A DNA stretch of 64,000 nucleotides, from the IMG/VR virus record IMGVR_UViG_3300034122_001045. One strand, written 5' to 3'. Below, piece by piece: positions 1 through 57,382 of the stretch. The stretch comes from a virus (lineage: Duplodnaviria > Heunggongvirae > Uroviricota > Caudoviricetes). Numbering within the stretch: position 1 is the stretch's first letter; each line of letters starts with the position of its first letter. Made by a program: the position numbers and the translations under genes. The notes under the pieces were generated by a model, which made no database searches, was not told the origin of the DNA, and saw only the letters and a list, made by a program, of their open reading frames with translations.

Positions 1-60
1 AAGGAATACTGCGCAAAGAACTTCTTCTCAAAGGATAATTTTACTTTAAGAGACTGATAT

Positions 61-68
61 TATAAATA
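61..68 (+). promoter_or_regulatory. T4-type late promoter motif TATAAATA, 27 nt upstream of the ATG at 96
   Basis: Exact TATAAATA at 61-68. The same octamer recurs upstream of the gp23, gp21 and gp18 homologs on the minus strand. Confidence 0.6.
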
Positions 69-95
69 GAAAGAACATACTCCTTAGAGGACAAG

Positions 96-2564
96 ATGGA
101 CGACAATAAAAAGATTGATCCAAAGAAAAAGAAGCAAAAAAGCTTTAAAGAATTTGACCCAACAAAATACATAGAAACAGAGCCAACTATGAACGAAGCT
201 GCAAGAGGTGTGGCTGTCGTTAGTTTTGGTCGTTTTAATCCAATTACAACCGGTCATGAAAAGTTAGTCAACACCGTCATGTCTGAAGCGATTAAGCGTA
301 AGGGCGAACCTGCGATCTATATGTCTCATACACAAGATCCTAAAAAGAACCCGCTATCGTACAATCAGAAGATATCTCTCGGTCAATCTGCATTTGGCAA
401 GATCGTTAAAAAGTCTACATCAAAAACACTCATAGAAGTAGCCAAAGAGCTCTCAGGAAAATATTCGGAACTCGTAATCGTTGTCGGTTCGGATCGAGTC
501 AATGAATTTGAGACTCTTATGAATAAGTATAACGGAAAAGAATACAATTTTGAGAATATATCAGTAGTATCTGCCGGAGAAAGAGATCCGGATTCTGACG
601 ATGTTTCTGGTATGTCAGCATCAAAGATGAGATCTCTTGCAGCTAAGAAGGACCTTGAAGCTTTTAAGAACGGTCTTCCAAAAAAGTTAAAATCGTCAGC
701 TAAGAAAGTGTATGACATGGTTAGAAACGGAATGAACATGACAGAAAGCACTGAAGAAGTAGTTTTAGAAGCAGCACCTCTTACTCTTGCTCAAAGACGT
801 AAACGTGGTCTTATAATGAAACGTTATAAGACAAAGATAAAGGCTGCTCGTGAGAGAGCTAAGAGAAAGATGGCGCCAAAAGAAAACCTTCTTAAGAGAG
901 CAAGAAAGCGAGCTTTAGAAGTTATTCGTGATCGCCTTATGAAGAACAAGAAGTATTCGGAAATGTCTCCTGCCGAAAAGATCAATCTAGACGCAAGACT
1001 TGCAAAAGTACCTAAGGCAGTCATTGGTCGTATTGCAGCAAAGCTTCTTCCTAAAGTTCGTGCCGCAGAAAAAGAAAGACTAAAGAATGTCCTTGCGCCT
1101 AAACAAGAATCTTTAGATACTGCGTTCGAAACTTTCTTAGAATCAAGAACCGTTAAACCGCAGGACAAAGACGTGGCACATATGCCGGGTTCGCAGCCTA
1201 AGGGATACTATGCTGGCGTTAAATCAAGTGTAAAGGATGATCGTGCTAGACACTTCGCAAAGTATTCTAAAAAGAGCGACGATGAGCAATCATCATATAA
1301 GCCAGCGCCTGGTGATAAAGGTGCTAAGACGAAGCCATCGGTTCACACAACAAAATTTAAACAGATGTTTGGCGAGTCTCTTAACGAAGCTTCACAGGCA
1401 GATACTAAGTTTCGTAAGAGACCGCATATGGCACTAGAAAAGAATGGTTCTGTTAAGTTTGATAAAAGATTTAAGATCTTTAAGAAACAGATTAACGAGA
1501 GCCACGAAGATTTTTCGTTTGAAATACTCGGTCTCATGGAAGATGTTGATAACTTTGTCATGTCTGAAGAGTACGATGTTCTTATGGAAAATAATCCAGA
1601 AGAAGCTCTCAAGAATAAAGCCGAAAAGAGCGGAATATCATACGGAATACTTAAGAAGGTGTTCGATCGTGGTGTAGCTGCTTGGAGAACTGGACACCGT
1701 CCAGGTACGACTCCAACTCAGTGGGGTCTCGCAAGAGTTAACTCGTTTGCCACAAAAGGCAAGGGTACTTGGGGTAAGGCAGACTCAGATCTTGCTGCTA
1801 AAGTAAGAAGCGAAGCAGTATCGCCAACAGCAGTTCATCCTTTTGTCCACATAAAGGACCCTGATAAAGCAGTTAAGATACCAAAGGCTCTAAAGCACAA
1901 GCTAGGTGTTGGTCTAACTCCAAAGCATATGATGATGCATGGAAGTAAAGCAATCGACTTAGATGTTGATGGCGACGTGGATAAGTTTGATAAGACTACA
2001 CCAGACGAAATCACTGGTACAGAGAAGAAGAACCTTACTCGTCAAATGCAAAAGAAGTATTCTGGAGAAGTCAAAACAGGTAAGATCGGAAACGCTTTTG
2101 AATCTGTTGACGAAGGCGTAGAACAAGCAAAGATGAAGATGAAGATCTCTCAAGAAAAGATGGCTGATGCAAGAAGGCACGATCGTATGCTTGATGCTGC
2201 AAAGCAAAGAGATAAATCTTCAAGCAAGAATCTATCTCGAGATATTCAAGAAGGTGATCCGAACCCTCATAATCGTGAGGATGGGACCGATAAGCTAGTC
2301 AAGACTTATAAGAAAGATACGCCCGGAGAGAAATCCCTTAAAGAGTTTATGCTCGCAGGATCGTTTGGCACATTCAAGAGAGGCGATAGAGTTCGTTTTA
2401 CGAAACACTCGATGGATATGTTCGACGGTCAACTACGTAAGGGTACTGTAGTAGGCGGAGACATTTCTTGGCTAAGAGTAAGAGACGACGACGGTACACT
2501 ATATAAAGTTCGCCATTACAACGCAGCTGCCGTCAATAACGACGATCCAGCCAATAAGTTTTAA
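96..2564 (+). CDS. Large lysine-rich protein (822 aa). N-terminal HIGH-motif nucleotidyltransferase domain (NMNAT/NadD/CoaD-like), followed by a ~600-aa basic low-complexity tail. Probable late, virion-packaged internal protein.
   Basis: GRFNPITTGHEKL (HxGH motif) at aa 45-58. SASKMRS (ISSTxIR-like motif) at about aa 174. Degenerate CTS-like KSFKEF at aa 15-20. Late promoter at 61-68. Paralog family with the downstream genes. Confidence 0.6.
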   Translation: MDDNKKIDPKKKKQKSFKEFDPTKYIETEPTMNEAARGVAVVSFGRFNPITTGHEKLVNTVMSEAIKRKGEPAIYMSHTQDPKKNPLSYNQKISLGQSAFGKIVKKSTSKTLIEVAKELSGKYSELVIVVGSDRVNEFETLMNKYNGKEYNFENISVVSAGERDPDSDDVSGMSASKMRSLAAKKDLEAFKNGLPKKLKSSAKKVYDMVRNGMNMTESTEEVVLEAAPLTLAQRRKRGLIMKRYKTKIKAARERAKRKMAPKENLLKRARKRALEVIRDRLMKNKKYSEMSPAEKINLDARLAKVPKAVIGRIAAKLLPKVRAAEKERLKNVLAPKQESLDTAFETFLESRTVKPQDKDVAHMPGSQPKGYYAGVKSSVKDDRARHFAKYSKKSDDEQSSYKPAPGDKGAKTKPSVHTTKFKQMFGESLNEASQADTKFRKRPHMALEKNGSVKFDKRFKIFKKQINESHEDFSFEILGLMEDVDNFVMSEEYDVLMENNPEEALKNKAEKSGISYGILKKVFDRGVAAWRTGHRPGTTPTQWGLARVNSFATKGKGTWGKADSDLAAKVRSEAVSPTAVHPFVHIKDPDKAVKIPKALKHKLGVGLTPKHMMMHGSKAIDLDVDGDVDKFDKTTPDEITGTEKKNLTRQMQKKYSGEVKTGKIGNAFESVDEGVEQAKMKMKISQEKMADARRHDRMLDAAKQRDKSSSKNLSRDIQEGDPNPHNREDGTDKLVKTYKKDTPGEKSLKEFMLAGSFGTFKRGDRVRFTKHSMDMFDGQLRKGTVVGGDISWLRVRDDDGTLYKVRHYNAAAVNNDDPANKF

Positions 2565-2573
2565 GAGGATAAA

Positions 2574-3371
2574 ATGAAATCTTTTAAGAAGTTTGTAAAA
2601 GAAGCATGCTGGACTGGATACAAGCAGGTTGGCATCAAAGAAAAGAATGGACGTAAAGTTCCTAATTGTGTTCCAGAAGAAGCTGATGTTGACGAAGCAT
2701 ATGTTCATACTGATTTTACTGATAAAACAACCCCAATGGGGAATAGAAAGGCATATGCAGCTGCAAAAGCAAATGATGAAAAGAAACCAGTTTCTTTAAA
2801 AAAGGCTCCTTGGGATAAGAAGAACGAAGAAGTTCAACTAGATGAAGTATCCGATAAGAAGCTAGATGTGTATCGTCAGAAGGCATTTGCGGATCAACCA
2901 TCTGGTGACGATGGTTCTGACAAGTATCGTAAGCGCAAGTTTGGTCGTGACCTAGCATTCGCTAAACAAACTGGTAGAGCTAAAGTTCTTGCTACAAAGG
3001 AATCTGTCGAAGAGCTTGATGAGCTTTCACCGAACACGCTTTCTTCTTATGCAAGTAAAGCTAACATAGACGCGTCAAAAGCTAGAAGTCATATGAGAGT
3101 TTCCGCTGGTGGAAAAGATTTTGCTACTCATAAGAAAAGATACGATAAGAGAACCGCCGGTGCTGTGAGGGCAGGAGAAAAGTATCGCAAGTTAGTAGCC
3201 AGAGAAGAAATCAAACTTGATGAAGCTTCAGATCTTCGCATCACCAAGGTCTACAATAAGTTTCCTAAGAAAGCGACCTATGCAGTTCACTCACCAGATC
3301 GCAAGTACTACAAAGAGTTTGACTCAATGGAAAAAGCAAAAGCTCATCACGCAGAAAAGACAGGTAAGTAA
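2574..3371 (+). CDS. Lysine-rich putative internal (capsid-targeted) protein
   Basis: N-terminus MKSFKKFVKE matches the T4 IP capsid-targeting sequence pattern (MKTYQEFIAE) with VxE at positions 8-10. Contains one copy of the EELDELS..TLSSYASKA repeat found in the 4326 gene. Confidence 0.6.
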   Translation: MKSFKKFVKEACWTGYKQVGIKEKNGRKVPNCVPEEADVDEAYVHTDFTDKTTPMGNRKAYAAAKANDEKKPVSLKKAPWDKKNEEVQLDEVSDKKLDVYRQKAFADQPSGDDGSDKYRKRKFGRDLAFAKQTGRAKVLATKESVEELDELSPNTLSSYASKANIDASKARSHMRVSAGGKDFATHKKRYDKRTAGAVRAGEKYRKLVAREEIKLDEASDLRITKVYNKFPKKATYAVHSPDRKYYKEFDSMEKAKAHHAEKTGK

Positions 3372-3372
3372 A

Positions 3373-3651
3373 ATGAAATCTTTTAAGGAATTCGTAGAAC
3401 ATCCAAACTGCGGAACGCCAGACTGCTGCGGACAATGCAGCACCGTCTCGGAAGCCGAGTCTTGGGAAGCAGGATACAAGCGTCGTGTCGTAAAGACTAC
3501 GAGTGCTGAGCATAAAGAAAAGGGAATGAACTGGCGCATCAAGGGTAAAGAGCGCCCAGAGATCTCAATCAAGCTCTATAAAGAAAAGCCATCACAGGCA
3601 GAGTTCAATAAGCAGATGCGTCGAGTCGCCGGCCACGAGTTTGGTGGATAA
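3373..3651 (+). CDS. Small putative internal protein with CTS-like N-terminus (MKSFKEFVEH)
   Basis: Internal start at 3373, with RBS AGGTAAGTAAA and ATG 1 nt after the upstream stop. Cys-rich (CGTPDCCGQC). The longer ORF 3217-3651 overlaps the upstream gene and was rejected. Confidence 0.5.
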   Translation: MKSFKEFVEHPNCGTPDCCGQCSTVSEAESWEAGYKRRVVKTTSAEHKEKGMNWRIKGKERPEISIKLYKEKPSQAEFNKQMRRVAGHEFGG

Positions 3652-3944
3652 TGATTCGTTTTAGTCAATACATCTCAGAAGCATATTTTGTTCAATATGT
3701 CCGTGATAAAGATATTGACGTATTAAAGTTGCGTGATACCAATCAAAGAGGCTGGGTTGAGGTTCGCGGTAAAAAGAACTATGAAGTTACATATGATAAG
3801 AACGATCCTATGCACAAAGCTATCGACGGTTTAGGCAAGGCAGCAAGTATATCAGATCTGATGAATGGTGATGTAGTAAGTATCAATCCTCATCATCCTC
3901 ATGGTAAAAAAGCAATCGAAAACATCCAAAGGTTAATGAAATGA
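3651..3944 (+). CDS. Small putative internal protein with CTS-like N-terminus (MIRFSQYISE)
   Basis: TAATG overlap with the upstream gene. IxE at positions 8-10. Confidence 0.45.
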   Translation: MIRFSQYISEAYFVQYVRDKDIDVLKLRDTNQRGWVEVRGKKNYEVTYDKNDPMHKAIDGLGKAASISDLMNGDVVSINPHHPHGKKAIENIQRLMK

Positions 3945-4249
3945 AGACGTTTAAGCAGTTTCTCGAAGAAAAGGATCCTCGTATCGAGAGAGCAGGAGTT
4001 GCCGGTTTCAATAAGCCAAAGGCGACTCCTAGTCATCCAGAAAAGAGTCACATAGTCGTTGCAAAGTCCGGCGATCAAGTAAAGACGATCCGCTTTGGAC
4101 AGCAAGGAGCCGAGACTGCGGGTGATCCTAAGGAAGGCGAATCCGAAAGAATGAAGATGAAGAGAAAGTCTTTCAAAGCTCGTCACGGTAAGAATATCGC
4201 TAAGGGAAAAATGTCGGCTGCTTATTGGGCCGATAAAGTTAAGTGGTAA
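3941..4249 (+). CDS. Small basic putative internal protein, CTS-like N-terminus (MKTFKQFLEE)
   Basis: ATGA overlap with the upstream gene. LxE at positions 8-10. Lysine-rich. Confidence 0.55.
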   Translation: MKTFKQFLEEKDPRIERAGVAGFNKPKATPSHPEKSHIVVAKSGDQVKTIRFGQQGAETAGDPKEGESERMKMKRKSFKARHGKNIAKGKMSAAYWADKVKW

Positions 4250-4252
4250 CTA

Positions 4253-4260
4253 CTTTTATA
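4253..4260 (+). promoter_or_regulatory. T4-type late promoter motif TATAAATA upstream of the 711-aa repeat protein gene
   Basis: Exact octamer, about 66 nt upstream of the ATG at 4326. Confidence 0.5.
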
Positions 4261-4325
4261 AATAAAGTAAGTAGATCTAGTATCAGCAATTCATGTTAGG
4301 CAATCAATTTCTAAGGACAGAATAA

Positions 4326-6461
4326 ATGAAGAGATTCAAATCTTATATTAACGAATCAGTTGAGCTCGATGAGTCAATCACGAAAATGTCTGATGCTCGT
4401 CTCAAGTTTCACGTTTTGAAAAATGTACCACATGGTAGCTATACCAAAAAAGAGCTATCGGCAGAACACGATCGTCGTAGAAAGACCCAAGGGCCTGCAT
4501 ATATGGCCGTAAAACCTTCACTCAACGAAGAAAATATTGATGAAGCAGTAAATGCTAAAAAGATTGCTGCAGATCATGACGCTGGTCATTCGATTGACGT
4601 TATTGTCCAAAAGCATCTCAATAAAAAGGGTGATAACAAGGATGAGATTCTAAAAGCTATTCAAGCTCACCGCTGGAATAAGCGTATGAAGAAAGAAGAA
4701 GCTGAACTTGACGAAGTTTCACAGGAGACGCTCCGTAATTATCACGCGAAGGCTGCTCTCGATTTAAGAAAGAAAAGAGAAAAACTTGATAAGGGTACTC
4801 TGACCTCTAAAGATTATAAGCAGGGACAAAACCGCGTAACTGGTTTGAATAGAGCTGCCAATAAAATGGAAGAAGTTGAACTTGATGAAGCTCGTAAGAG
4901 CGACTCATATCAATTTACTCACAAACCAGGCGATGCTGAATCTGAAAAAAGATTAGCCGACCTTAAAAAGTCAGTAAAAGGTACTGGTAAGCGTGTTGTA
5001 CTACAAGGTCGTTTGGGTAAAGACAATCCTAACGCACATAAGTATTCTAAGGATGCACCTAGTGCGAAATACAAAGACGGCAAGCGCGTAAATAGTGACG
5101 TTTCAGGAAAATCAGGTGGCCATTCTCATCAGCGCATTCAAAAAGCAGATGCAGCCCATCACGACGTATATGTCTACGACCGTAATGAGTCTGTTGAACT
5201 TGATGAAATTTCAAAAGCCACTTTACGTAAAGTGGGAGGCCAAATGCTACGTAAAGGCCTTTCAGACGACCCAAAAGCAGATAAGCACATGAAGTATGCA
5301 AATCTAGCGTCTGCAAAACTTTATCCTAACCAATATAAAAATTCTCCTCTAAAAGCGAAAGTTAACGCTACAGAAGAAGTCGAGTCCCTCGACGAACTTT
5401 CAAAGAAGACTCTTGGTTCATACGTGAAAAAAGCTGCTGGTGATGCTGTTACTAAAGCTTATAGAGCAGGTGACGTTCGAGATAAAGATAGTGGTAAGAA
5501 TTACATGAAAGCCCTAGGAAGACAGATTGGTATTTCTACAGCAACTAGTAAACTTGCGAAAGAAGAAGTTGAACTTGATGAAGTTTCGACCGCAACTTTG
5601 CAAAGATATAAATCTGCGGCAAGTAAAGCCATGGATCGTGCATCAGACTCAGCAATTGATAAAATGCTAGGCAGTAAGGATTCTCAGTCTGTAGACATTT
5701 CAAAAGAAAAAAAGACTATGGACAAGCGTAGCAAGGGAGTATCCCTCGCTTCAAATAAACTAGCTAAAGAAGAATTCGAACAGATCGACGAACTTTCAAA
5801 GAAGACCCTTGGTTCATATGTTAAGAAAGCCTCACGCAATCTAGCTGGAAGAGAATATAAGCGTGGAGCCGAAAAAGATACAAGCACGTCAAATCTCCAA
5901 AAATCCTATAAAAGAGATATGGGCATCGCTAAAGCAGTTGATAAACTAACTAAAGAAGAAGTTGAAAATCTTGATGAACTCAAGAAATCAACCCTCGGTT
6001 CATATGTGAAGAAGGCTGCTGGTAGTATGGCTGGTAAAACTGCTGTTGCTGCTGCACAAGCCTCATCCTCAATGGGAAAATCTTCGCCAGATATAAAGCG
6101 TGGTATAGTTAACCGTATGAAGGGTATTACTAGAGCTACTGATAAACTCGCAAAAGAAGAAGCAGATCTCGAAGAAAAACTGGTTGGCGGTCAAAAGAAG
6201 TTGGATCACAACAAGAACGGTAAAATCGACTCGCATGATTTTCATCTTATGAGAAAAAAGAAGATGAAGGAAGAAGTTGAAGGTCTTGACGAGATCTCTC
6301 GCGACCTAGCTCGTCGTTACATCCGTAAAATTGCTGATAAGACGAACACCGGAGAACTATCCGTCAAGCAAGTTGAGAAGCGTAGACCTGGTCTAAATCT
6401 TGCTGGTAAGAAAGCATACCCTTCGATCGCTGGTGAACCAAAGGTTCGTGCTACAGATTAA
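4326..6461 (+). CDS. 711-aa lysine-rich repeat protein, putative internal (capsid-targeted) protein
   Basis: N-terminus MKRFKSYINE (IxE at positions 8-10). At least 8 degenerate tandem repeats of the form EEVE(L/N/S)LDE(L/V/I)SKxTLGSYVKKAAG, spaced about 50-70 aa apart. Confidence 0.65.
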   Translation: MKRFKSYINESVELDESITKMSDARLKFHVLKNVPHGSYTKKELSAEHDRRRKTQGPAYMAVKPSLNEENIDEAVNAKKIAADHDAGHSIDVIVQKHLNKKGDNKDEILKAIQAHRWNKRMKKEEAELDEVSQETLRNYHAKAALDLRKKREKLDKGTLTSKDYKQGQNRVTGLNRAANKMEEVELDEARKSDSYQFTHKPGDAESEKRLADLKKSVKGTGKRVVLQGRLGKDNPNAHKYSKDAPSAKYKDGKRVNSDVSGKSGGHSHQRIQKADAAHHDVYVYDRNESVELDEISKATLRKVGGQMLRKGLSDDPKADKHMKYANLASAKLYPNQYKNSPLKAKVNATEEVESLDELSKKTLGSYVKKAAGDAVTKAYRAGDVRDKDSGKNYMKALGRQIGISTATSKLAKEEVELDEVSTATLQRYKSAASKAMDRASDSAIDKMLGSKDSQSVDISKEKKTMDKRSKGVSLASNKLAKEEFEQIDELSKKTLGSYVKKASRNLAGREYKRGAEKDTSTSNLQKSYKRDMGIAKAVDKLTKEEVENLDELKKSTLGSYVKKAAGSMAGKTAVAAAQASSSMGKSSPDIKRGIVNRMKGITRATDKLAKEEADLEEKLVGGQKKLDHNKNGKIDSHDFHLMRKKKMKEEVEGLDEISRDLARRYIRKIADKTNTGELSVKQVEKRRPGLNLAGKKAYPSIAGEPKVRATD

Positions 6462-6626
6462 GTTGAATAGTCAGGTGTTTCGTAGAGTAATAGAAGTACT
6501 GAACGGAAAATGGATCGAAGATGTCATAAATAACTTCGATCCATACGGAATAAAAGAACAGACTGATATTGAGTTAAATAAAAAACATCATGAAAAAACA
6601 AAACTCAATAATAAGGAGAAAATAAA

Positions 6627-7250
6627 ATGAGTTTATGGGGAAAAACAGATACGCTAGCTTCGGTGCCTAAGTGGCTCAATGCTAACGATCCAAACAAGTC
6701 CAACGACCTAGACAACGCATTCTTCGTTGACCTAACAGAAGCAGCAGTTGCTTCAAACATAGCAAAAGGCCTAGGTACTCCTGGCTGGAACCTTTATCAT
6801 ACATACGTCGATGGAACTGGAAATACACGTCACAAAGCTGAACCGCTTATCGTGATGAAGGTAACAGCTGCAGCCGCAGGCGACCTAGGTATTAGCGGTA
6901 ACACTAATATTGAAGATACTACTGTACCTGACACTATCATTGCGATTACAGTACAACCAGCTAGCGTTTCACGAGTTGCACCTAACACTGCAACATTTAC
7001 TGTTACCGCAACAGCGACACCTACCGCAACACTTACTTACCAGTGGCAGATTCAGCAATCTAACGAATCTGGAACTACATGGACTAACGTAGGTACGAAC
7101 GCCGCTAGCTATACCACAGGTGTAACTGCAGTGGCACCAGGATCTGGCGCAACTAACGGCGATAAGTATCGTGTACTTGTTTCAGCACCAAATAATACAC
7201 CTACTGTTGTAACATCTTCTACCGCAGTACTAACGGTAACTGCATCATAA
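6627..7250 (+). CDS. Ig-like domain protein, probable virion decoration or surface protein
   Basis: C-terminal half is T/S/A-rich beta-strand-like (TYQWQIQQSNESGTTWTNVGTNAASYTT, typical of I-set/Big domains). Strong RBS AAGGAGAAAATAAAATG. Confidence 0.45.
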   Translation: MSLWGKTDTLASVPKWLNANDPNKSNDLDNAFFVDLTEAAVASNIAKGLGTPGWNLYHTYVDGTGNTRHKAEPLIVMKVTAAAAGDLGISGNTNIEDTTVPDTIIAITVQPASVSRVAPNTATFTVTATATPTATLTYQWQIQQSNESGTTWTNVGTNAASYTTGVTAVAPGSGATNGDKYRVLVSAPNNTPTVVTSSTAVLTVTAS

Positions 7251-7256
7251 TTTGAA

Positions 7257-7631
7257 ATGAAACTAGGAGAATCAACCTTTCTTCTCTACGCTGCAAAACA
7301 CTATGATAATCCGCATTGTTCAGACATAGCAGAGTTTGAGGAAGACCTAAAAAGATTTCAGTACTTACGAAAGCTTTTTAGTAGATATAAGCAGACAGGA
7401 GATCTTAAGGAAAGGTTGATTCTCAATCATCTTATCATTCTGTATAATTGTTTTGGTGTAGATGCTACGAACATGCTCTTTATGAAGCTAGAAGAGTATC
7501 ATAAATACTTAAAACCGTTTGTTGAATACTTAAACTTCATGCCCGCTTTCATAGAGTATGAAAATAAAAAGATACACAACAACCATATCGAATCCGATAG
7601 AACAATTGAAGAAACTCTTAAAGGCATCTAA
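7257..7631 (+). CDS. hypothetical protein
   Basis: 124-aa ORF, in series with its neighbours. Confidence 0.4.
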   Translation: MKLGESTFLLYAAKHYDNPHCSDIAEFEEDLKRFQYLRKLFSRYKQTGDLKERLILNHLIILYNCFGVDATNMLFMKLEEYHKYLKPFVEYLNFMPAFIEYENKKIHNNHIESDRTIEETLKGI

Positions 7632-7633
7632 CA

Positions 7634-8188
7634 ATGGTCGTAGATCTTTTCCTTGTATATAGCTTTATTCGTAGACTTACAACTCCATTTGAAAAATGGG
7701 AAGCGTATGCACAAGGCGTAATCGATAAAGATGGAAATATTCTAAAGAAGAAAAAAGAAAGAAACACTAGAGGTGAAAAAGATTCCTTTGGTATATTCGA
7801 TCTTATGGTGCTAAAGCTTAAGAAGCTTCTTGCAAAGATCCCAGGTGGTTCCACTCGTCTTGCTTCATACACTGCTGCGTTGTGGCTCATAAAAGAGTGG
7901 AACCATTTTTCCGAGGATTCTTTACTCACTGAGTCTATCACCGATGAGCAACTCGATGAATCTCTAGATTTATTTTTTAGCAGATATTGCTATTATATCG
8001 GTATAGAAGAAGATGTCAAGGAAAAAATGATAGAAGAACCGACAGTAAATGTCGGGTCTGGTAACATAGCTGGTCTCGGTGTTGGACCGCAGGGCGAACC
8101 TGGATTAACACCTTCGCAGATGAAGAAGTATAAAAAGAAGAACCCCGGTCCTAAGAGACTTAGAGATATAATAGGAGCAAACACATGA
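7634..8188 (+). CDS. hypothetical protein
   Basis: 184-aa ORF, ATGA-coupled to the endolysin gene. Confidence 0.4.
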   Translation: MVVDLFLVYSFIRRLTTPFEKWEAYAQGVIDKDGNILKKKKERNTRGEKDSFGIFDLMVLKLKKLLAKIPGGSTRLASYTAALWLIKEWNHFSEDSLLTESITDEQLDESLDLFFSRYCYYIGIEEDVKEKMIEEPTVNVGSGNIAGLGVGPQGEPGLTPSQMKKYKKKNPGPKRLRDIIGANT

Positions 8189-9078
8189 TTACATTAGAAC
8201 AGTTCAGCGCAATGATACCGAAGAATAAAGAAGCTAAAGAATGGTATGATGTAGCTATCGACATGTTTGAAAAGTATGAAATCACAACACCACTTCGCAT
8301 TGCGGCTTTCATGGCACAGTGTGCTCACGAGTCAGCTGACTTTACAATGCTTGAAGAGAACCTTAACTATCGTGAAGAAACTCTTCTCAAGGTATTCCCA
8401 CGCTACTTCGGAGCTGGAAAGCGCAATGCAGCTGAGTATGCAAAGAACCCAGAGAAGATTGCGAACTACGTCTATATGGACGAGTTTAGAAGTAAGCAGG
8501 GTGCTATGGGAAATACTCAAGCAGGAGATGGTTGGAGATTCCGTGGTCGCGGAGTTAAGCAGTTAACTGGACGTAATAACTACACCGCATTCGCAAAGAC
8601 TGTTAACATGACCGCAGAACAGGCATCAGCTTATCTTGACACAAAGAAAGGTGCTCTTGAGTCCGCATGCTGGTTCTGGAAAACGAACAACATCGCTAAG
8701 TTTGCAGATGCAGACGACATTGTTGGAATGACTAAGAAAATCAATGGTGGAACGATTGGTCTTGAAGATCGTACTACTCGTTATACAAAAGCGAAAGCAC
8801 TACTTGGCGGTAAGGTTTCTGCACCTCCTGTTACTGAGCAAGCAAAACCAGCGTCGGCAGCAAAACCAGCGGCCGCTGCTCCTAAGGCTGCCCAGAGAAC
8901 TCTCACGAGAGGGATGAAGGGCGACGATGTTAAAAGAATGCAGCAAGCTCTCGGAATTGCCGCAGACGGTGACTTTGGTTTTGGAACTGCCGGCGCACTC
9001 AAGAAGTGGCAGCGAGAGAATGGATTAGAAGCCGACGGTGTCGCTGGGCCAGCGACTCTAGCAAAGCTACTCAAATAA
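8185..9078 (+). CDS. Endolysin: glycoside hydrolase family 19-like lysozyme domain plus C-terminal peptidoglycan-binding domain
   Basis: RIAAFMAQCAHESADF...LEENLNY is a GH19 catalytic signature. The C-terminus LTRGMKGDDVKRMQQALGIAADGDFGFGTAGALKKWQRENGLEADGVAGPATLAKL is a PG_binding_1 repeat. An Ala/Pro linker separates the domains. Confidence 0.8.
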   Translation: MITLEQFSAMIPKNKEAKEWYDVAIDMFEKYEITTPLRIAAFMAQCAHESADFTMLEENLNYREETLLKVFPRYFGAGKRNAAEYAKNPEKIANYVYMDEFRSKQGAMGNTQAGDGWRFRGRGVKQLTGRNNYTAFAKTVNMTAEQASAYLDTKKGALESACWFWKTNNIAKFADADDIVGMTKKINGGTIGLEDRTTRYTKAKALLGGKVSAPPVTEQAKPASAAKPAAAAPKAAQRTLTRGMKGDDVKRMQQALGIAADGDFGFGTAGALKKWQRENGLEADGVAGPATLAKLLK

Positions 9079-9118
9079 TAAATAGTAGGTTAGAAACCTA
9101 ATAGAAAAGGAGACAAAA

Positions 9119-9325
9119 ATGTCTGTTACTGATATTATAAAGCATTCAGTTGATAAAAATCCTCTAGCGATGAAGGAAGCTCTAGAAGCAGAGCTTGCAG
9201 CACGTATTCGTCTTGCTCTCGAAGCAAAGATGTCTGATGACGAAGAAGACGAAGATGAAGAAGAGGAAGATGAAGACGAAGACGAAGACGAAGAAGATGA
9301 GGACGAAGACGAAGCCAAAAAATAA
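9119..9325 (+). CDS. Small protein with a ~30-residue poly-Asp/Glu tail
   Basis: 68 aa, ending DDEEDEDEEEEDEDEDEDEEDEDEDEAKK. A GAA/GAC codon run. The reverse-strand poly-Ser ORF is its mirror image. Confidence 0.5.
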   Translation: MSVTDIIKHSVDKNPLAMKEALEAELAARIRLALEAKMSDDEEDEDEEEEDEDEDEDEEDEDEDEAKK

Positions 9326-9901
9326 ATGAAGATCTATATCATCATAGCAATGTTTATGGCGGCTTCTATGGTAAGTGGAGGCGTATACTATTATTACACC
9401 TCCACGCAAGCCAAGATAGAGCAGCTTACTCAATATAACGCCACTCTTATGGCGAATGTTGAACAGATGGAACAAGTGAACAAACAGAACATCGCTACGA
9501 TTAATAATCTTCAGGCTGGTTATCAGCAGGCACAGGAGAACTTTGCTGCGCTTCAGAATAACTTTACGGAAATACGTCGTCAGAATAACGAATTGAGAGA
9601 CAGACTCGGAAAGCACGAGTTGGATGTCCTCGCAGCTGCAAAACCGGGTTTGGTTGAAAAGATACTAAACAGCGCAGCTGAAAAAGCAATGAGATGTTTT
9701 GAACTTGAGTCTGGATCGGTTCTAACAGACAAAGAAAAGGAAGCAAAGAATGCAAGAGCGTTTAACAGCGAGTGTCCTTGGATTTATGATCGTCTTGTCG
9801 CTAGCGGCATGCTCACGCCCAGCGCCAGTGGAACCACCACCGAAGATAATAACGGAGACACAAATAGTGAAACCTCCGAAACCGTCGGTTCCAACCCCTG
9901 A
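9326..9901 (+). CDS. Putative i-spanin (type II membrane protein with periplasmic coiled coil)
   Basis: N-terminal TM IYIIIAMFMAASMVSGGVYYYY, then a Q/N-rich heptad coiled coil. Lies immediately downstream of the endolysin and overlaps the lipoprotein gene. Confidence 0.55.
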   Translation: MKIYIIIAMFMAASMVSGGVYYYYTSTQAKIEQLTQYNATLMANVEQMEQVNKQNIATINNLQAGYQQAQENFAALQNNFTEIRRQNNELRDRLGKHELDVLAAAKPGLVEKILNSAAEKAMRCFELESGSVLTDKEKEAKNARAFNSECPWIYDRLVASGMLTPSASGTTTEDNNGDTNSETSETVGSNP

Positions 9902-10106
9902 CGAATTGAATCTAAGAGAAGTAAAATTCGCGGTCATTACACCCGAAAACGCAGAAGAAATTTTCTCAAAGGTAAAGGGAGACAAAGTTCTCTTTGCTCT
10001 CACAGCGAAGGACTATGAGAACATTTCTCTCAACTTAAGTGACATTCGAGCATACATACAGCAGCAAAAAGAAATCATTGTGATATATGAAAAGCAGTGG
10101 GACTAA
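9750..10106 (+). CDS. Putative o-spanin (outer-membrane lipoprotein), overlapping the i-spanin in another frame
   Basis: Signal peptide plus lipobox LSLAAC. The mature N-terminus is Pro-rich (RPAPVEPPPKIITETQIVKPPKPSVPTP). Its start is embedded in the last 150 nt of the i-spanin gene. Confidence 0.5.
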   Translation: MQERLTASVLGFMIVLSLAACSRPAPVEPPPKIITETQIVKPPKPSVPTPDELNLREVKFAVITPENAEEIFSKVKGDKVLFALTAKDYENISLNLSDIRAYIQQQKEIIVIYEKQWD

Positions 10107-10132
10107 AATATAAATAGTCTCGATTGGTTTTA

Positions 10133-10161
10133 GATGGCCCTTCAGGGGCCATTGTTCTTTA
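10133..10161 (+). terminator. Rho-independent terminator hairpin after the spanin genes
   Basis: ATGGCCC-ttcag-GGGCCAT stem followed by TTGTTCTTTAT. Confidence 0.55.
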
Positions 10162-10189
10162 TAGAATGTGATTTCTTTCAGGAAACAAA

Positions 10190-10657
10190 ATGACTGACAC
10201 CGAAGTAAACGTTCTAAAGACAGATGTCGCTCTTATCAAAAAAGACATTAAACAGATAGAGAGAGTATTTAATAAAGTCGACCACGCAGTTGGTGACATG
10301 GCCGAGCTACATAAGATAGCTGCGGTTCAAGAGAAGATTCTTGAGAACGCTGAAAGAAGAATTGAAAACCTAGAAGATACCTTTATTAAACATGCCGATG
10401 ATGAGGCTGAGCATCGTAAAGAACTCAGCAAAGTAATCGCCGACATGAGAGAGGACGCTCAGATACAAAGAGAACGTCGTCACAAAGAAGTATTAGAGTC
10501 AATACAGAATATGCATACGGTCATAACTGCAAAACTTGAGACTCAGGATGCAAGAATACAAGCCCTTGAAAACTGGAGATGGTGGATCCTCGGTGCAGCC
10601 GCGGTCTTGATCTTCCTCTTTGACAGATATGAATCCCTGATGTCACTTTTTGGTTGA
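10190..10657 (+). CDS. Coiled-coil protein with a single C-terminal TM (lysis-associated or other membrane protein)
   Basis: 155 aa. C-terminus WRWWILGAAAVLIFLF. A TATAAATA octamer at 10109-10116 lies upstream. Confidence 0.4.
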   Translation: MTDTEVNVLKTDVALIKKDIKQIERVFNKVDHAVGDMAELHKIAAVQEKILENAERRIENLEDTFIKHADDEAEHRKELSKVIADMREDAQIQRERRHKEVLESIQNMHTVITAKLETQDARIQALENWRWWILGAAAVLIFLFDRYESLMSLFG

Positions 10658-10715
10658 CATTTGGGATATATGGAATATATTGTAATTCAATATCATGCAA
10701 CTAATGTGAGGCAAC

Positions 10716-11723
10716 GTGGTAGATTTTGTAGATCTCCAATACGCGACTATGCTTTCGAGCCGATTGGATCGGTTTAAAGTTCGGTCGACGAATCCGTATA
10801 AGATAAACTTCAGGTGCCCTGTCTGCGGCGACTCTCAGACGTCAAAGACGAAGGCACGAGGCTGGCTGCTCGAAAAAGATAACAGCTTCCACTTCTACTG
10901 CCATAACTGCGGCGCAAGCCAATCGTTCTCGTACTTTCTCAAGAGTATTGACGGTATGGCATATAATGATTACATCGCAGAAAAGTTTGTGAAGGACGCG
11001 AAGAAGTCCGATGCGTCCATCTTAGAAAAAACAAAATTTGAAAAGCCTGTGTTCAATGTTGACCCTCTTAAACAACTTAAGAAGGTGAGTCAACTATCCA
11101 CGGATCATCCTCTTAAAAAGTACGTAATGAAAAGAGGAATTCCACCACAGCACCACTATCGAATGTATTTTGCCCCAAAGTTTAAAACTTGGATCAATAG
11201 CATTATTCCAAATAAGTTTGAGAACGTAGGCAAAGACGAACCTCGTCTCGTAATTCCATTCTTTGATGAGAACGGAAAGATGTTTGGTGTGTCGGCTCGT
11301 GGTTTTGATCCGAACGGCGTAAGATACATTACCATTATGTTTGAAGAACGTTCTAAGATCTTTGGCCTCGACACTGTAAATTTTGAACAGACATACTTCG
11401 TAGTTGAAGGTGCTCTCGACTGTATGTTTCTTTCAAACGCTGTTGCAATGGCAGGTGCTGACGGAAACGTAAGTGGTCTGAAAAGAGCTGACAACGCGAT
11501 CTTTGTATTCGATGCTGAGCCTCGGAATAAAGAGATCCATAAAAGGATTGAGAGGCTCATCAACGCCGGTTATCGAGTGTGCGTATGGCCCTCTAGCGTG
11601 CCTGGCAAGGATATAAATGAAATGGTTCTAAACGGTATATCAAACGTTGAAGAAGTCATTCGAGAAAACACTTATAAGGGTCTTCAAGCGACACTTAAGT
11701 TAGCATCATGGAGAAAAGTATGA
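10716..11723 (+). CDS. DNA primase (T4 gp61-like): zinc ribbon plus TOPRIM
   Basis: CPVCGDS...CHNCG zinc-binding N-terminus. A TOPRIM-like acidic motif VVEGALDCMFL. Size of 335 aa. Confidence 0.75.
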   Translation: MVDFVDLQYATMLSSRLDRFKVRSTNPYKINFRCPVCGDSQTSKTKARGWLLEKDNSFHFYCHNCGASQSFSYFLKSIDGMAYNDYIAEKFVKDAKKSDASILEKTKFEKPVFNVDPLKQLKKVSQLSTDHPLKKYVMKRGIPPQHHYRMYFAPKFKTWINSIIPNKFENVGKDEPRLVIPFFDENGKMFGVSARGFDPNGVRYITIMFEERSKIFGLDTVNFEQTYFVVEGALDCMFLSNAVAMAGADGNVSGLKRADNAIFVFDAEPRNKEIHKRIERLINAGYRVCVWPSSVPGKDINEMVLNGISNVEEVIRENTYKGLQATLKLASWRKV

Positions 11724-12217
11724 AGAATGTAAATGCTATTTTAGCTCACGATGCTTTTTGGGGAATTGGAAAGGACGGTGATCTTCCTTGGCCAAAGAAT
11801 AGCGATGATCTTAAATGGTTTAAAGAAAAGACGCTCGGTGGTGTCGTTGTGATGGGTAGAAAGACTTGGGAGAGTCTACACGTCAAGCCATTACCTAATA
11901 GACTCAACTACGTTATCTCGTCTTCGAATAATATTTCGCGTGGCTATCATGGTACGTATGGCGGCAATGATATTGTAGAAGTAATTAAAGATAAGATTGT
12001 GAAACGATACTCGGATCATTCTAAAATCTGGATCATCGGTGGTGCGCAGCTCGTTGAGAGTTGTCTTGAAATCATTGATGAACTCTGGTTAAACGATGTC
12101 GGCGGTGTTTATGATTGCGATACATTCCTTCCTAAACAAAAGATCACGGAACAGTTTCATATGGGTAGCGTAGAAGTTTTAAGTTTTGGAATTATTACAA
12201 AGTGGGTTAAAAGATGA
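11708..12217 (+). CDS. frd: Dihydrofolate reductase
   Basis: NAILAHDAFWGIGKDGDLPWP...VVMGRKTWESL is a canonical DHFR N-terminus. ATGA-coupled to thyA. Confidence 0.85.
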   Translation: MEKSMKNVNAILAHDAFWGIGKDGDLPWPKNSDDLKWFKEKTLGGVVVMGRKTWESLHVKPLPNRLNYVISSSNNISRGYHGTYGGNDIVEVIKDKIVKRYSDHSKIWIIGGAQLVESCLEIIDELWLNDVGGVYDCDTFLPKQKITEQFHMGSVEVLSFGIITKWVKR

Positions 12218-13261: not shown

Positions 13262-14542
13262 ATGCTGGACGTTTCGAATAACGAAATAAGAAAGACAGTG
13301 AGCTATGTTTCGAAAAGAGACGGTTCAACTGAAAACTTCGATAGAAATAAAATTGTTACCGCAGTTTCAAAAGCTATGAGATCAGTTGGAATTAAAAGTA
13401 AAACTATACCAGAAGAAGTTTCATTGGAAGTGGCCGATAAACTTAACAGCGATGCTCTCAATGATGTTATCGTAAGCGTCGACGCAATTCATAGAACAGT
13501 TGAAAACGTAATCATGGATATGGGTCTGCACGATCTCGCTCGAGAATACATCCTCTATCGTTATAACAATATGCCAAGTATCTTTCGTAAGAGAACAAAT
13601 CTTAAACCTTACGAATATCCACAACTCATCGAGTACCTTGAAGCAATCCGCCATTCCTATTGGGTTCATACAGAGTTTAACTATTCATCCGACATTCAGG
13701 ATATGAAGGTTCGTATGACTCCTCAGGAAGCAGATATTGTAAAGAAGGCAATGCTTGCTATCTCTCAGATCGAAGTTCAAGTCAAAACGTTCTGGGCGAA
13801 GGTTGGCGATAAGATGCCAAAGCCAGAAGTACAAGCCGTTGGTGTTACCTTTGGTGAGTCTGAAGTTCGTCATGCTGATGCGTATTCAAACCTTCTTGAG
13901 ATAATGGGTCTTAACTCTGAGTTTGAGAACCTAGTTGAAGTACCAGCGATTAAGAAGCGTATCGCATATCTCGAGCAGTCGCTTCAGACTCCAGTTGATG
14001 ATAAGGACTACTTCCATAAGATCATTCTCTTTTCTATGTTCGTTGAAAATGTATCGCTATTCTCTCAGTTCCTTATTATGATGGCATTCAATAAACATAA
14101 GAACGTCCTTAAGGGTATCTCTAACGCTGTTGAAGCTACCTCAAAAGAAGAAGACATTCACGCTCGTTTTGGTTTCGAACTCGTGAATATCATTAAAGCA
14201 GAGAACCCAGACTGGTGGAACAAGGATACCATATCCGAAGTCAACCGTCTCTGCAAAGAAGCATATAAGGCAGAAGCTATGATCGTTGATTGGATCTATG
14301 GTGATTCGGATCTTGACTTTCTTCCGAAAGAAACCGTAAAAGAATTCCTCAAGCACCGTTTCAATCAGTCGCTTCAGGCAATCGACCTTAAACCTATCTA
14401 TGAAACCGATGTCAATGTAGTGAAGAGCACGAACTGGTTTGTTGAAGAAATCCTCAGCACAAAGAACGTTGACTTCTTCGTCAAGCGTAGCACTGCATAC
14501 TCAAAGAAGACAAAGTCATTCACAGAATCAGATCTATTCTAA
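13262..14542 (+). CDS. nrdB: Ribonucleotide reductase small subunit (NrdB) with N-terminal ATP-cone domain
   Basis: The N-terminal ~90 aa, VSKRDGSTENFDRNKIVTAVSKAM, are ATP-cone-like. The remaining ~330 aa are a ferritin-like R2 (helical, conserved E/H iron-ligand positions). Followed by nrdA. Confidence 0.75.
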   Translation: MLDVSNNEIRKTVSYVSKRDGSTENFDRNKIVTAVSKAMRSVGIKSKTIPEEVSLEVADKLNSDALNDVIVSVDAIHRTVENVIMDMGLHDLAREYILYRYNNMPSIFRKRTNLKPYEYPQLIEYLEAIRHSYWVHTEFNYSSDIQDMKVRMTPQEADIVKKAMLAISQIEVQVKTFWAKVGDKMPKPEVQAVGVTFGESEVRHADAYSNLLEIMGLNSEFENLVEVPAIKKRIAYLEQSLQTPVDDKDYFHKIILFSMFVENVSLFSQFLIMMAFNKHKNVLKGISNAVEATSKEEDIHARFGFELVNIIKAENPDWWNKDTISEVNRLCKEAYKAEAMIVDWIYGDSDLDFLPKETVKEFLKHRFNQSLQAIDLKPIYETDVNVVKSTNWFVEEILSTKNVDFFVKRSTAYSKKTKSFTESDLF

Positions 14543-26986: not shown

Positions 26987-27952
26987 ATGAAAGCTTTACT
27001 ATCAGCGGCGGCAATTATTGCTTTGGCGTCCACGACTGCGTTTGCAAGAGATAACGTTCAAGTAACAGGATCGTCTACAGTACTACCATATGCAACCATT
27101 GTCGCAGAGGCATTTGGTGAAAATTTTGATTTTCCGTCGCCAGTAGTTGAAGGTGGTGGTTCGGGTGCAGGCCGTAAGAAGCTCTGCGAAGGTGTTGGTG
27201 AAAACACTGTTGACATCGCAAATAGTTCTTCAAAGATGAAGGATGAAGAAAGAGCCAAGTGTGAAGAAGCAATTGGTGAAGTGACTGAGGTTCGTATTGG
27301 TTATGACGGTATCGTGTTTGCATCGAACATCGATCAACTTAATATCGATAATCTAACAGTCGAACAACTCTATAGCGCTCTACACGAGTCGAGCACTGCA
27401 AAACTCTGGAGTGAAGTCGACTCGACTCTTCCAGAAGTAGCAATCCTTGCATACATTCCAGGTACCAAACACGGCACTCGTGAAGTGTTCGATGTAAAGG
27501 TGATGGAAGAAGGTTGTAAAGCAGCTCTCGGTGTTGAGAAACTCGATGACGATCAAAAGAAAGCTTGTGTGAAAGTAAGAACTGACGGTGCAGCAGTTGA
27601 CATCGATGGCGACTACACAGAAACACTTGCTCGTCTTGATGCTAATAAAACATCGCTAGGTGTGTTTGGTCTTAGCTTCTATCAGAACAACACTGATAAA
27701 CTAGAAGTTGCCACGGTAAGTGGCGTGGCACCAAGCGTAGAAACCATCTCAAGCGGTGACTATCCAATCAGCCGTCCACTTTACTTCTACGTGAAGAACG
27801 CTCACCTCAGCGTCATTCCTGGTCTGAAGGAATACATCGAGTTCTTCGTGAGTGATGAGATGGCAGGTCCTGATGGCGCTCTTGCACAGTATGGATTGGT
27901 TCCAGATCCAGAACTTGCAGCTACTCAGGCTGAAGTTTCTGCTCTTAAATAA
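26987..27952 (+). CDS. pstS: Periplasmic phosphate-binding protein PstS (auxiliary metabolic gene)
   Basis: Signal peptide. VTGSSTVLPYATIVAEAF is the PstS family N-terminal signature. 321 aa. Confidence 0.85.
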   Translation: MKALLSAAAIIALASTTAFARDNVQVTGSSTVLPYATIVAEAFGENFDFPSPVVEGGGSGAGRKKLCEGVGENTVDIANSSSKMKDEERAKCEEAIGEVTEVRIGYDGIVFASNIDQLNIDNLTVEQLYSALHESSTAKLWSEVDSTLPEVAILAYIPGTKHGTREVFDVKVMEEGCKAALGVEKLDDDQKKACVKVRTDGAAVDIDGDYTETLARLDANKTSLGVFGLSFYQNNTDKLEVATVSGVAPSVETISSGDYPISRPLYFYVKNAHLSVIPGLKEYIEFFVSDEMAGPDGALAQYGLVPDPELAATQAEVSALK

Positions 27953-27954
27953 GA

Positions 27955-29686: not shown

Positions 29687-29696
29687 AGGATAAACC

Positions 29697-30492: not shown

Positions 30493-30789
30493 TATATTGT
30501 AAGCAATGGAGAACAACTATGGCTATCGCAATCGTGACCCCCGAAGAAGTTGAAGTCGACGTCTGCTACGGCAACTTTGACGGTTCCTATACCAAAACTA
30601 TGTATGTAGTTGACTTCTTTAGAACTGAAGTAGGTATGTTGCACGGCGATCTCGACACATCGATGTATATCAAGACTGAACACGATGCAAAGATGATGGC
30701 CCGACTTTATGAACTCGGCATGACCGGCCGTGGCGAATACAACGAGATTACCTTTAACAAGATTTTTGAAGATGCAGAGGTTGGCGAAG

Positions 30790-31314: not shown

Positions 31315-31616
31315 TATTGCGTACTTAGTTATTAATTGGAAATTGGAGGAATAGATGGCTTTTTATACTATGATTGGCTTCATTGTCGTTGCGGCTGTGA
31401 TTGGTGTTGGTGCGTATTGGGTGGTGTCAAATATCACGTTTAAACGCCAGCCTGAACGCTTCACGTATACCAAAGATGAAGATGGTAATGAATACGTCCG
31501 TGATAACACTGTAACAACGAAAGATAAACCTGATGTTTAAACCTGATCGCTATGACTTTAACACTAAAGCTGAGTATGAAGCAGCACTAAATCAATATAA
31601 TGAACGTAAAAGGAAA

Positions 31617-56707: not shown

Positions 56708-57382
56708 TTAGTTCTTCAGAGAACGAATGAAGTTTTCGAATAGACGCGCAGCATATGCTTCGTCTACCTTTCTTACAGTTCTCTTATACTCTTTTTTCAC
56801 TTCTTGAACGGCCTGCTCAATCATCTGCTGAGCTCTCCAAGTTCCAGATACTATATCGTAATAGTAGTCCGTGTTTTCCATAATACCGTTCACAAAGCAG
56901 TTTGGACCCGATGGATCTGTGACGATATCGACAGTCGCAAGATGAAAGTCGTTTTGAACTTCCATGATGCCTTCTTTCGTTGCCTTTACAGATCCAAGGC
57001 CGCGAGTAGAAACACCAACCTTGACACCCTCGTCAATGAACGTCTTTACAATGTTACCCATTGGAGTACCTAGGATCTTTGCCTTACCAACGAAGTTTGA
57101 ACCGTCGCGCTTCATCTCAGTAATAAGGTGAGATACGCGATCACCGTTGATCTGAGGACCATCTGGGTGCCCAAGTTCTCCAAGAGCTCTTTTAGTCTTA
57201 ATGAACTGCTCGCCGTATCTCATCATTTCTTTTTCTAGAATCGTCGATGGATATATTCTTCCATTACGGTTCTTGATATCTCCTTGCATGAAGATACCTT
57301 CGATGAAATACTGCTTTGGCTCGTGTTCGCTTGTTTCAGTTAGAACTCTAACTTCTTCAATTGTTTCCGTGATCAGTTTCAT
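56708..57382 (-). CDS. 21: Prohead protease (T4 gp21 homolog)
   Basis: YFIEGIFMQGDIKNRNGRIYP..LGELGHP...GVSTRGLGSV aligns with T4 gp21 YIEGIFMQAEVVNRNKRLYP..LGELNHP..GVSSRGLGSL. Start set at the internal Met, which has RBS AAGGAGAAATCAT and a late promoter 21 nt upstream. The track ORF extends to 57496. Confidence 0.85.
   Translation of the reverse strand: MKLITETIEEVRVLTETSEHEPKQYFIEGIFMQGDIKNRNGRIYPSTILEKEMMRYGEQFIKTKRALGELGHPDGPQINGDRVSHLITEMKRDGSNFVGKAKILGTPMGNIVKTFIDEGVKVGVSTRGLGSVKATKEGIMEVQNDFHLATVDIVTDPSGPNCFVNGIMENTDYYYDIVSGTWRAQQMIEQAVQEVKKEYKRTVRKVDEAYAARLFENFIRSLKN

Follow-up and report, generated by a model that had tools for sequence, protein, structure and literature searches.

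The gene and its family

The stretch of DNA studied here, hereafter the window, comprises 64,000 nucleotides (nt) of the IMG/VR virus record IMGVR_UViG_3300034122_001045 (Caudoviricetes), which is a T4-like marine myovirus. The gene of interest is an open reading frame (ORF) on the plus strand, found at positions 96-2564 as stated in a preliminary description of the window, whose product of 822 amino acids (aa) has a mass of 92.5 kDa and an isoelectric point (pI) of 9.8. The protein presents a leader, a nucleotidyltransferase domain and a series of C-terminal modules, and its gene is followed by several genes whose products begin with sequences resembling a capsid targeting sequence (CTS). The coordinates of these features are presented in Table 1.

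Table 1. Positions of the features of the 822-aa gene and of associated genes in the window. AF2, AlphaFold2 model.
Feature	Position	Strand	Remarks
T4-type late promoter box TATAAATA	61..68	+	27 nt ahead of the start codon
Shine-Dalgarno-like AGAGGA	86..91	+	4 nt ahead of ATG; read directly from the sequence
Whole gene	96..2564	+	cyanophage 'cytidylyltransferase' T4-GC190 / PHROG 3041 family
Leader / predicted propeptide, residues 1-34	96..197	+	Lys-rich start, CTS-like KSFKEF (residues 15-20, nt 138-155), predicted site EPTMNE|A after E34
Nucleotidyltransferase domain, residues 35-226	198..773	+	21 kDa; TxGH and SxxKxR motifs
GRFNPITTGH, residues 45-54	228..257	+	(H/T)xGH nucleotide-binding motif at the strand-1/helix-A junction
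SASKMR, residues 174-179	615..632	+	ISSTxxR-equivalent phosphate-binding motif, helix N-terminus
Very basic helical region, residues 227-334	774..1097	+	pI 11.5; kept in long family members; confident in AF2 model
Conserved region, residues 335-470	1098..1505	+	PGSQPKGYY...HF...YKPAPGD..KTKPS..HTKKFKQMFGE; medium model confidence; no known fold
DUF5824 domain, residues ~470-573	1506..1814	+	helical, acidic (pI 5.6); Pfam PF19141 E 2.9e-17; AF2 pLDDT ~87
Long single helix, residues 673-719	2112..2252	+	AF2
Conserved GTDxLVKxYKKDTPG motif, residues 730-745	2283..2330	+	also near the C-terminus of S-SZBM1_140
Small beta-barrel, Tudor/SH3-like, residues 755-815	2358..2540	+	AF2; Foldseek; phrog_31682
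Next gene, 265 aa	2574..3371	+	MKSFKKFVKE|A, then Cys-containing CWxGY..G.K.PNC (CWxGY..VPNC) domain
Three small ORFs with CTS-like N-termini	3373..4249	+	3373-3651, 3651-3944, 3941-4249
711-aa CTS-type protein (MKRFKSYINE)	4326..6461	+	behind its own TATAAATA at 4257
T4 gp21-type prohead protease	56708..57382	-	phrog_207 E 1.3e-71; flanked by portal, scaffold and major capsid genes

The late promoter that had been placed upstream of the start codon at the distance given in the table is indeed present. Its box occurs nine times in the window against 2.8 copies expected, a count reached by no shuffle, and the sites mostly precede head or tail genes. Five of the nine copies are on the minus strand within the head and tail block, where they precede the genes for the major capsid protein, the prohead protease, the tail sheath and a CTS-type ORF adjacent to the portal gene, with another just upstream of the scaffold gene. 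This excess and this placement indicate that the phage uses T4-type late promoters, one of them at the 822-aa gene. The AGAGGA sequence is a plausible ribosome-binding site for the gene.

Among the PHROG profiles, the protein matches phrog_3041 ('cytidyltransferase') with E = 1e-93 and phrog_395 with E = 5.6e-46. A tblastn search retrieved 566 phage records, mostly Synechococcus and Prochlorococcus myoviruses in which the gene is annotated as a cytidyltransferase or cytidylyltransferase, together with Pelagibacter phage HTVC008M, the Melnitz phages, DLP6 and the PBECO4/CBB jumbo phages. Metagenomes yielded over 5900 relatives, one of them 97% identical, and the transferase domain alone retrieved 3715 clusters at 50% identity. 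The cyanophage protein S-SZBM1_140 presents 43% identity over the transferase domain (E = 3e-31) and, comparing the genomes downstream of the gene, S-SZBM1 and the window have in common the order nucleotidyltransferase gene, CWxGY-domain protein, phrog_613 head protein, primase and ribonucleotide reductase. By identity and gene order, S-SZBM1_140 is taken as the positional orthologue of the 822-aa protein, which is itself assigned to the cyanophage core family T4-GC190 as a long form.

Two motifs mark the transferase domain. Where the preliminary description had reported an HxGH signature within residues of about 40-200, the motif is present at residues 45-54 (within GRFNPITTGHEKL, residues 45-57) and reads TxGH, not HxGH; TxGH is a normal variant of HxGH in the nucleotidyltransferase superfamily. 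The ISSTxIR-like motif SASKMRS was correctly recognized at residues 174-180, with its S and R invariant, and SASKMR aligns to GISGTKIR of 3gmi. Residues G45, R46, T51, G53, H54, S174 and R179 do not vary in either of the two alignments of relatives; for P49 and K177, this holds in one alignment and very nearly in the other. These invariant motif residues argue for an active enzyme.

The Pfam model CTP_transf_like (PF01467) is matched marginally, with 22.2 bits against a cut-off of 21, and 30 of 57 relatives match it at E <= 1e-4. Structure prediction, which had been proposed as a check on the fold, was run with AlphaFold on residues 35-230 together with 50 relatives, and yielded a predicted local distance difference test score (pLDDT) of 88 and a predicted template modelling score of 0.82, with the motifs located, as expected, where strands meet helices. 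A strand (domain residues 5-11) precedes T51-T-G-H54, which lies at the start of a helix (18-33), and another helix starts from domain residue 141 at S174-A-S-K-M-R179, so the (H/T)xGH geometry is retained. The model and the PF01467 match bear out the NMNAT/NadD/CoaD/cytidylyltransferase fold: the domain presents the Rossmann-like fold common to NMNAT, PPAT and GCT, and is a bona fide (H/T)xGH superfamily member.

Its nearest characterised relatives are NMNAT-type enzymes, and it cannot be classed as an NMNAT. The archaeal and bacterial adenylyltransferases of nicotinamide mononucleotide (NMN) and nicotinic acid mononucleotide (NaMN), i.e., 1f9a, NadD, NadR and NadM, and the PPAT CoaD, have the same Rossmann-like (H/T)xGH fold, with GxFxPxTxGH and SxxxxR in the expected places. 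However, identity to these fold matches is only 14-19%, which is evidence at the level of the fold and does not separate NMNAT from PPAT. The phage domain further differs in sitting inside a putative virion protein and in having extra invariant SHxQD..KKNPL, GSDR and ERD motifs without an assigned role. Cytidylyltransferases, TmcAL, FAD synthetase and class I tRNA synthetases are lower-scoring fold matches. Among the NCBIfam equivalog hidden Markov models (HMMs), those for NadD and NMNAT are the best weak matches and are far under their cut-offs (TIGR00482, 24.6 vs 112.45; TIGR01527, 13 vs 181.2; TIGR01526, 11.6 vs 341). Solved structures were also searched by sequence with the whole protein, with its first 335 aa and with a profile of 51 sequences, and nothing below E = 0.06 was obtained. 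No enzymatic or biochemical study of any T4-GC190 family member was found in the literature. Most likely, the 822-aa protein carries an active NMNAT/PPAT-like nucleotidyltransferase.

Leader, downstream gene array and probable head packaging

In T4 internal proteins, the first ten residues form the CTS, in which residues 4 and 7 are responsible for targeting and residues 8 and 10 govern processing (PMC9026906, PMC3012670). The T4 prohead protease gp21 cleaves after L/I-x-E (PMC9026906). In the 822-aa protein, KSFKEF at residues 15-20 is followed by DPTKYIETEPTMNE|A, with M-N-E|A at residues 32-34, and the KSFKEF motif is identical to the N-terminal motif of the ORF starting at 3373. The leader is conserved among relatives, 94 of 116 of which have a [LIVM]xE[AGS] site in the column of E34, and a prohead protease would be expected to cut after this residue. 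Less conserved sites of the same type are found near residues 226, 431, 468 and 719, mostly between predicted domains; one of these, VLE|A at residue 226, may be cut as well.

Removal of the leader is predicted to be the task of the gp21-type protease encoded in the window. The phrog_207 protease, the phrog_237 scaffold, the portal and the major capsid protein are encoded together at 54343-60450 on the minus strand, and hence a gp21-type protease and a scaffold core are both available to the phage. The scaffold protein contains 14 [LIVM]xE sites, as expected of a gp21 substrate.

The preliminary description had also placed the gene at the head of an array of CTS proteins, and this was found to be the case. 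The five ORFs that follow start with MKSFKKFVKE, MKSFKEFVEH, MIRFSQYISE, MKTFKQFLEE and MKRFKSYINE, and all five resemble an N-terminal CTS of about ten residues, the hallmarks of which are hydrophobic residues 4 and 7 and an L/I-x-E end. Considering all six frames, the CTS-form pattern is present in five of 680 Met-starts, four in this array and the fifth in an ORF between the portal and protease genes, which is where the T4 core proteins (gp67/gp68) are located. The CWxGY..VPxC domain of the first ORF of the array is also found in S-SZBM1_139, the neighbour of S-SZBM1_140, and S-SZBM1_139 was detected in virions (PMC9146016). The ORF at 3941-4249 matches phrog_7595 and phrog_220 'minor head protein and DNA pilot'. 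In the 711-aa protein, sites of the form (E)(V/S)ELDE[VIAS] recur at least six times, along with repeated ..LDELSKKTLGSYVKKA.. units, which suggests a polyprotein that the prohead protease may cut into many small pieces.

The presence of the family in virions has been reported repeatedly. A 'putative citidylyltransferase (T4-GC190)' was among the cyanophage core proteins newly detected in virions by Sullivan et al. 2010 (PMC3037559), and mass spectrometry also detected a family member in CsCl-purified S-SZBM1 (S-SZBM1_140; PMC9146016), S-SCSM1 (ORF91; PMC9602691) and S-CREM2 (ORF154; PMC10665884). In the latter two papers, the protein is called NMNAT-like, and is considered to be probably carried by the virion into the host and to influence NAD levels. 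The hypothesis of the preliminary description was therefore already in print, albeit as speculation. Given the family, its virion association and the idea of injection are all known, the 822-aa protein is a further, long-form member of a known family, one that belongs to the cyanomyovirus core, is carried by thousands of uncultured marine phages and recurs in virion proteomes. What is new here is the argument for head targeting at the level of sequence, i.e., a conserved leader and protease site within a CTS array, and the recurrent kinase partner described below, which make concrete experiments possible.

Taken together, the conserved leader and cleavage site, the CTS array, the late promoter and the proteomic reports on homologues make it likely that the 822-aa protein is packed into the phage head. 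The internal proteins IPI-III and Alt of T4, which are targeted by a CTS, processed by gp21 and injected, resemble it in being expressed late, in having a motif of the K-[ST]-[FY]-[KQ]-E-F type and a hydrophobic-x-E site, and in the gp21 homologue of the genome, and Alt is itself a large packaged enzyme. However, the mature parts have no sequence homology, the motif in the window protein is preceded by 14 residues with the predicted cut 14 residues further, and its packaging and processing are predictions from sequence.

Proposed function and competing explanations

We propose that the 822-aa protein is a late internal head protein of the ejection type, which would be released by the protease and injected, and whose nucleotidyltransferase would act on a small phosphorylated acceptor in the new host; we give this reading an even chance of being correct. 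The leader would dock the protein onto the prohead scaffolding core through KSFKEF. The prohead protease would then cut after E34, and possibly after E226 and E431, so that the head would contain a freed 21-kDa enzyme as well as basic fragments associated with the DNA, and at infection these would exit with the DNA in the manner of Alt and the internal proteins of T4. In the new host, the enzyme would transfer a nucleoside monophosphate, most probably AMP from ATP, to the acceptor, for which the fold and the weak HMM ranking would point first to NMN/NaMN, yielding NAD+ or nicotinic acid adenine dinucleotide. If the enzyme truly enters the host along with the DNA, the catalytic ejection proteins, of which T4 Alt is a rare case, would gain another member, and if it makes NAD+, it would tie virion cargo to the work on NAD+-depleting defences.

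The pairing of the transferase with a kinase bears on the type of reaction. A Zeta_toxin/AAA_33 P-loop kinase domain is found in 11 of 57 diverse relatives, and the same kinase is encoded directly upstream in HTVC008M and directly downstream in the P0004 lineage, in both cases with a CTS-like N-terminus of its own; overall, about one relative in five has a P-loop kinase, either fused to the transferase or encoded next to it. The best PDB match of the partner kinase is adenylate kinase (E = 0.013). A HIGH-type transferase is likewise combined with a P-loop kinase in NadR, which converts nicotinamide riboside (NR) to NMN and then to NAD+, and also in CoA synthase and PAPS synthase. This pairing favours a two-step cofactor reaction on a small molecule over the modification of proteins or nucleic acids, and, as in NadR, the phosphorylated acceptor would come from the kinase.

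The window also encodes a stand-alone AAA_33/Zeta-toxin P-loop kinase (30730-31314, plus strand, 194 aa, GTG start), which belongs to phrog_2071, as do the fused and adjacent kinases. It was considered as the missing partner and rejected, since it aligns with the fused kinases over the P-loop only and has no CTS-like start.

A number of points weigh against the proposed reading. Nampt, NR kinase and PnuC were not found among the approximately 55 ORFs scanned in the window, and an NMNAT alone cannot regenerate NAD+ from ADP-ribose and nicotinamide. The CTS-like motif of the 822-aa protein is internal, instead of occupying residues 1-10 as in T4; some relatives do carry it from residue 1-2, such as HTVC008M gp130 (MKTLKELL) and DLP6 gp068 (MKNIKDILE|A), where it is at the very N-terminus. 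Both the cleavage and the injection of the protein are steps that we infer. Finally, the authors of the S-SCSM1 and S-CREM2 studies warn that abundant late proteins may co-purify with virions (PMC9602691, PMC10665884).

Hence, of the injected nucleotidyltransferase suggested in the preliminary description, the packaging is likely on the evidence above, while we still infer the injection. Its suggestion that NAD+ may be regenerated is favoured by the NMNAT-type fold being the nearest, yet the equivalog scores and the missing partner genes speak against it; NAD+ is our leading guess for the product, with some evidence against. The phage systems NARP2 (Nampt and NMNAT) and NARP3 (PnuC and a NadR-like protein) resemble the present case in having a phage-encoded NMNAT-like step and, for some relatives, in the pairing of kinase and transferase. 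They differ in being expressed in the cell, in requiring partner genes and in being proven NAD+ makers, whereas the window protein appears targeted to the virion, has no partner found and has a predicted activity; no NARP-type partner gene was found beside the transferase gene in the relatives. A broader proposal would be that this widespread family of T4-like marine, soil and jumbo phages forms a head-packaged, protease-released cofactor kit, consisting of an NMNAT-like enzyme and often a co-packaged kinase that would work in two steps like NadR, injected to raise or hold NAD+ or a related dinucleotide before phage gene expression. We consider this quite unlikely. If true, the kit would forestall abortive-infection defences that deplete NAD+, or would supply an NAD+-using enzyme injected alongside it, and would be the first injected metabolic enzyme serving counter-defence.

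Other explanations have to be weighed against the proposed reading. The protein might be packaged and injected without being an NMNAT, adenylylating or cytidylylating another phospho-compound, e.g., 4'-phosphopantetheine (as a PPAT which, with the kinase, would form a pair like that of CoA synthase), flavin mononucleotide or a phospho-alcohol; this seems unlikely. It is decidedly unlikely that it is a core or DNA-associated protein of the head interior with an enzyme that acts in the producing cell or prohead and not in the next host, perhaps by activating a phospho-sugar or phospho-alcohol needed by the glycan genes found upstream in the closest relatives. In these (L004-L008, 2451-9962), a cluster of three GT29 sialyltransferase-like genes, a GT8 gene, a DegT aminotransferase, an epimerase/dehydratase and an SDR lies directly upstream of the homologous gene, and the last GT29 gene probably ends in bases 1-60 of the window. 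The cluster is not conserved elsewhere: HTVC008M, S-PRM1, DLP6 and S-SZBM1 have no glycan cluster beside the gene, and DUF6267 and related genes are upstream there instead. Moreover, the late promoter separates the 822-aa gene from the cluster, and the leader and the CTS array tie the protein to the head.

The DUF6267 neighbour raises the idea that the transferase belongs to a kit for repairing or modifying nucleic-acid ends, together with a possibly ligase-like DUF6267 protein and a Pnk-like P-loop kinase, and with an HD phosphohydrolase or ParB-like domain in some relatives. In its favour, the DUF6267 gene (~400 aa) is upstream in HTVC008M according to Pfam (gp127, L001 5547-6779) and, judging from position, size and N-terminal motif, apparently also in S-PRM1, DLP6 and S-SZBM1 (L002 2601-3803, L003 2143-3378, L010 7478-8671), and the phrog_455 profile unites it, at positions 22-342, with the transferase, at 408-731. 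The partner kinases weakly match phrog_505 'polynucleotide kinase', an HD_4/HD domain is inserted in relative P0032, and DLP6 gp068 has a ParB-like C-terminal sequence (by eye). Inspection of DUF6267 by eye also shows ligase-like VKWDG, EGYVAV and KAVKLV motifs, although the ligase reading is supported by no tool, and DUF6267 gave no PDB match and no Pfam match other than its own. This explanation is considered very unlikely.

The protein might finally be an abundant late cytoplasmic enzyme of auxiliary metabolism that contaminates virion preparations, which fits the co-purification caveat mentioned above and its absence among the proteins detected in the S-PM2 proteome (PMC3037559). We regard this as highly improbable, since the protein was detected in several independent CsCl-purified cyanophages, its leader has a protease-type site in most relatives, the gene is fused to modules like those of internal proteins and located in a CTS gene array, and a late promoter fits a metabolic takeover enzyme poorly.

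C-terminal modules and other genes of the window

The remainder of the protein had been described as a lysine-rich tail of about 600 aa, but it is not uniform. In the AF2 model of residues 221-822, which has a mean pLDDT of 70 and resembles beads on a string, this part is modular, with basic helices modelled confidently at residues 231-333, the conserved region with medium confidence at 340-435, DUF5824, the long helix and the barrel. The basic helical region may bind DNA, judging by its charge only. The PDB matches of the beta-barrel are Tudor/SH3-like, the best Foldseek E-value being 0.04, and the resemblance is generic. Foldseek yielded no PDB match for DUF5824 or the basic helices, a fold search of the same residues against BFVD returned uncharacterised homologues only, and no papers on DUF5824 were found in the literature.

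These modules vary among relatives. The T4-GC190 proteins of cyanophages have a homologous transferase domain, synteny and the C-terminal GTD..TPG motif, but with 290-370 aa they consist only of the domain and a small barrel, without the basic helical region and DUF5824, whereas the window protein has 822 aa and a Lys-rich leader. Long forms like that of the window are HTVC008M gp130, with 47% identity over residues 40-571 covering the nucleotidyltransferase domain, the PAPGD region and DUF5824; gp068 of Stenotrophomonas phage DLP6, with the nucleotidyltransferase domain, basic helices and a DUF5824-like part; and a 602-aa protein of Sinorhizobium phage phiM12. They differ from the window protein in the order and set of C-terminal modules, DLP6 gp068 having the ParB-like end.

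DUF5824 is present in 17 of 57 diverse relatives. The possibility of swappable N-terminal enzymes on a common DUF5824 carrier was rejected: P0032 (with the HD insertion) and P0095 and P0105 (with a Zeta_toxin/AAA_33 kinase) all keep the transferase, so their HD and kinase domains are extra inserts, and P0045 merely is without the transferase. Residues 1-135 of relative P0240 had been read by eye as ADP-ribosyltransferase-like (YYHGT...LYLTT...QEAS), but this was dropped because no Pfam match was obtained at E 1e-4; a true ADP-ribosyltransferase there would tie the transferase to NAD+ use.

As for the genome, a megablast search for near-identical phage genomes with positions 1-12000 of the window yielded no match. 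Its portal protein is 54% identical to that of the Sinorhizobium phiM12 group, the nearest isolates, and approximately 48% identical to those of DLP6, Cr30 and cyanophages. No tRNA genes or Rfam families were found in the window. The minus strand at 54343-63835 encodes the major capsid protein, scaffold, gp21-type prohead protease, a CTS-type protein, portal, tail tube, sheath and terminase, while primase, DHFR, thymidylate synthase and ribonucleotide reductase genes are downstream of the 822-aa gene. The CTS-type protein located between portal and protease (57653-58786, minus strand) and the ORF at 2574-3371 (plus strand) have PHROG families 4359 and 22379 in common, and S-PRM1 gp068 matches the same PHROGs.

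Several plus-strand genes are related to metabolism. The small subunit of ribonucleotide reductase (13262-14542, 426 aa) matches the N-terminus of large-subunit and NrdD models with residues ~9-104, and the large subunit (14762-16417, 551 aa) has no counterpart to its profile before position ~206, as if an ATP-cone had been transferred onto NrdB. Auxiliary genes across 26987-30455, 40922-41857 and 44057-45010 encode a PstS-like phosphate-binding protein, a metallophosphoesterase, a GT4 glycosyltransferase, an NAD-dependent epimerase, a second glycosyltransferase and a short, 252-aa ORF that resembles UDP-glucose dehydrogenase in its central domain only. The ORFs at 31533-32489, 32593-33717 and 36919-38061 encode an SPFH/Band 7 protein, a DNA ligase dependent on ATP and an RNA ligase of the T4 Rnl1 type.

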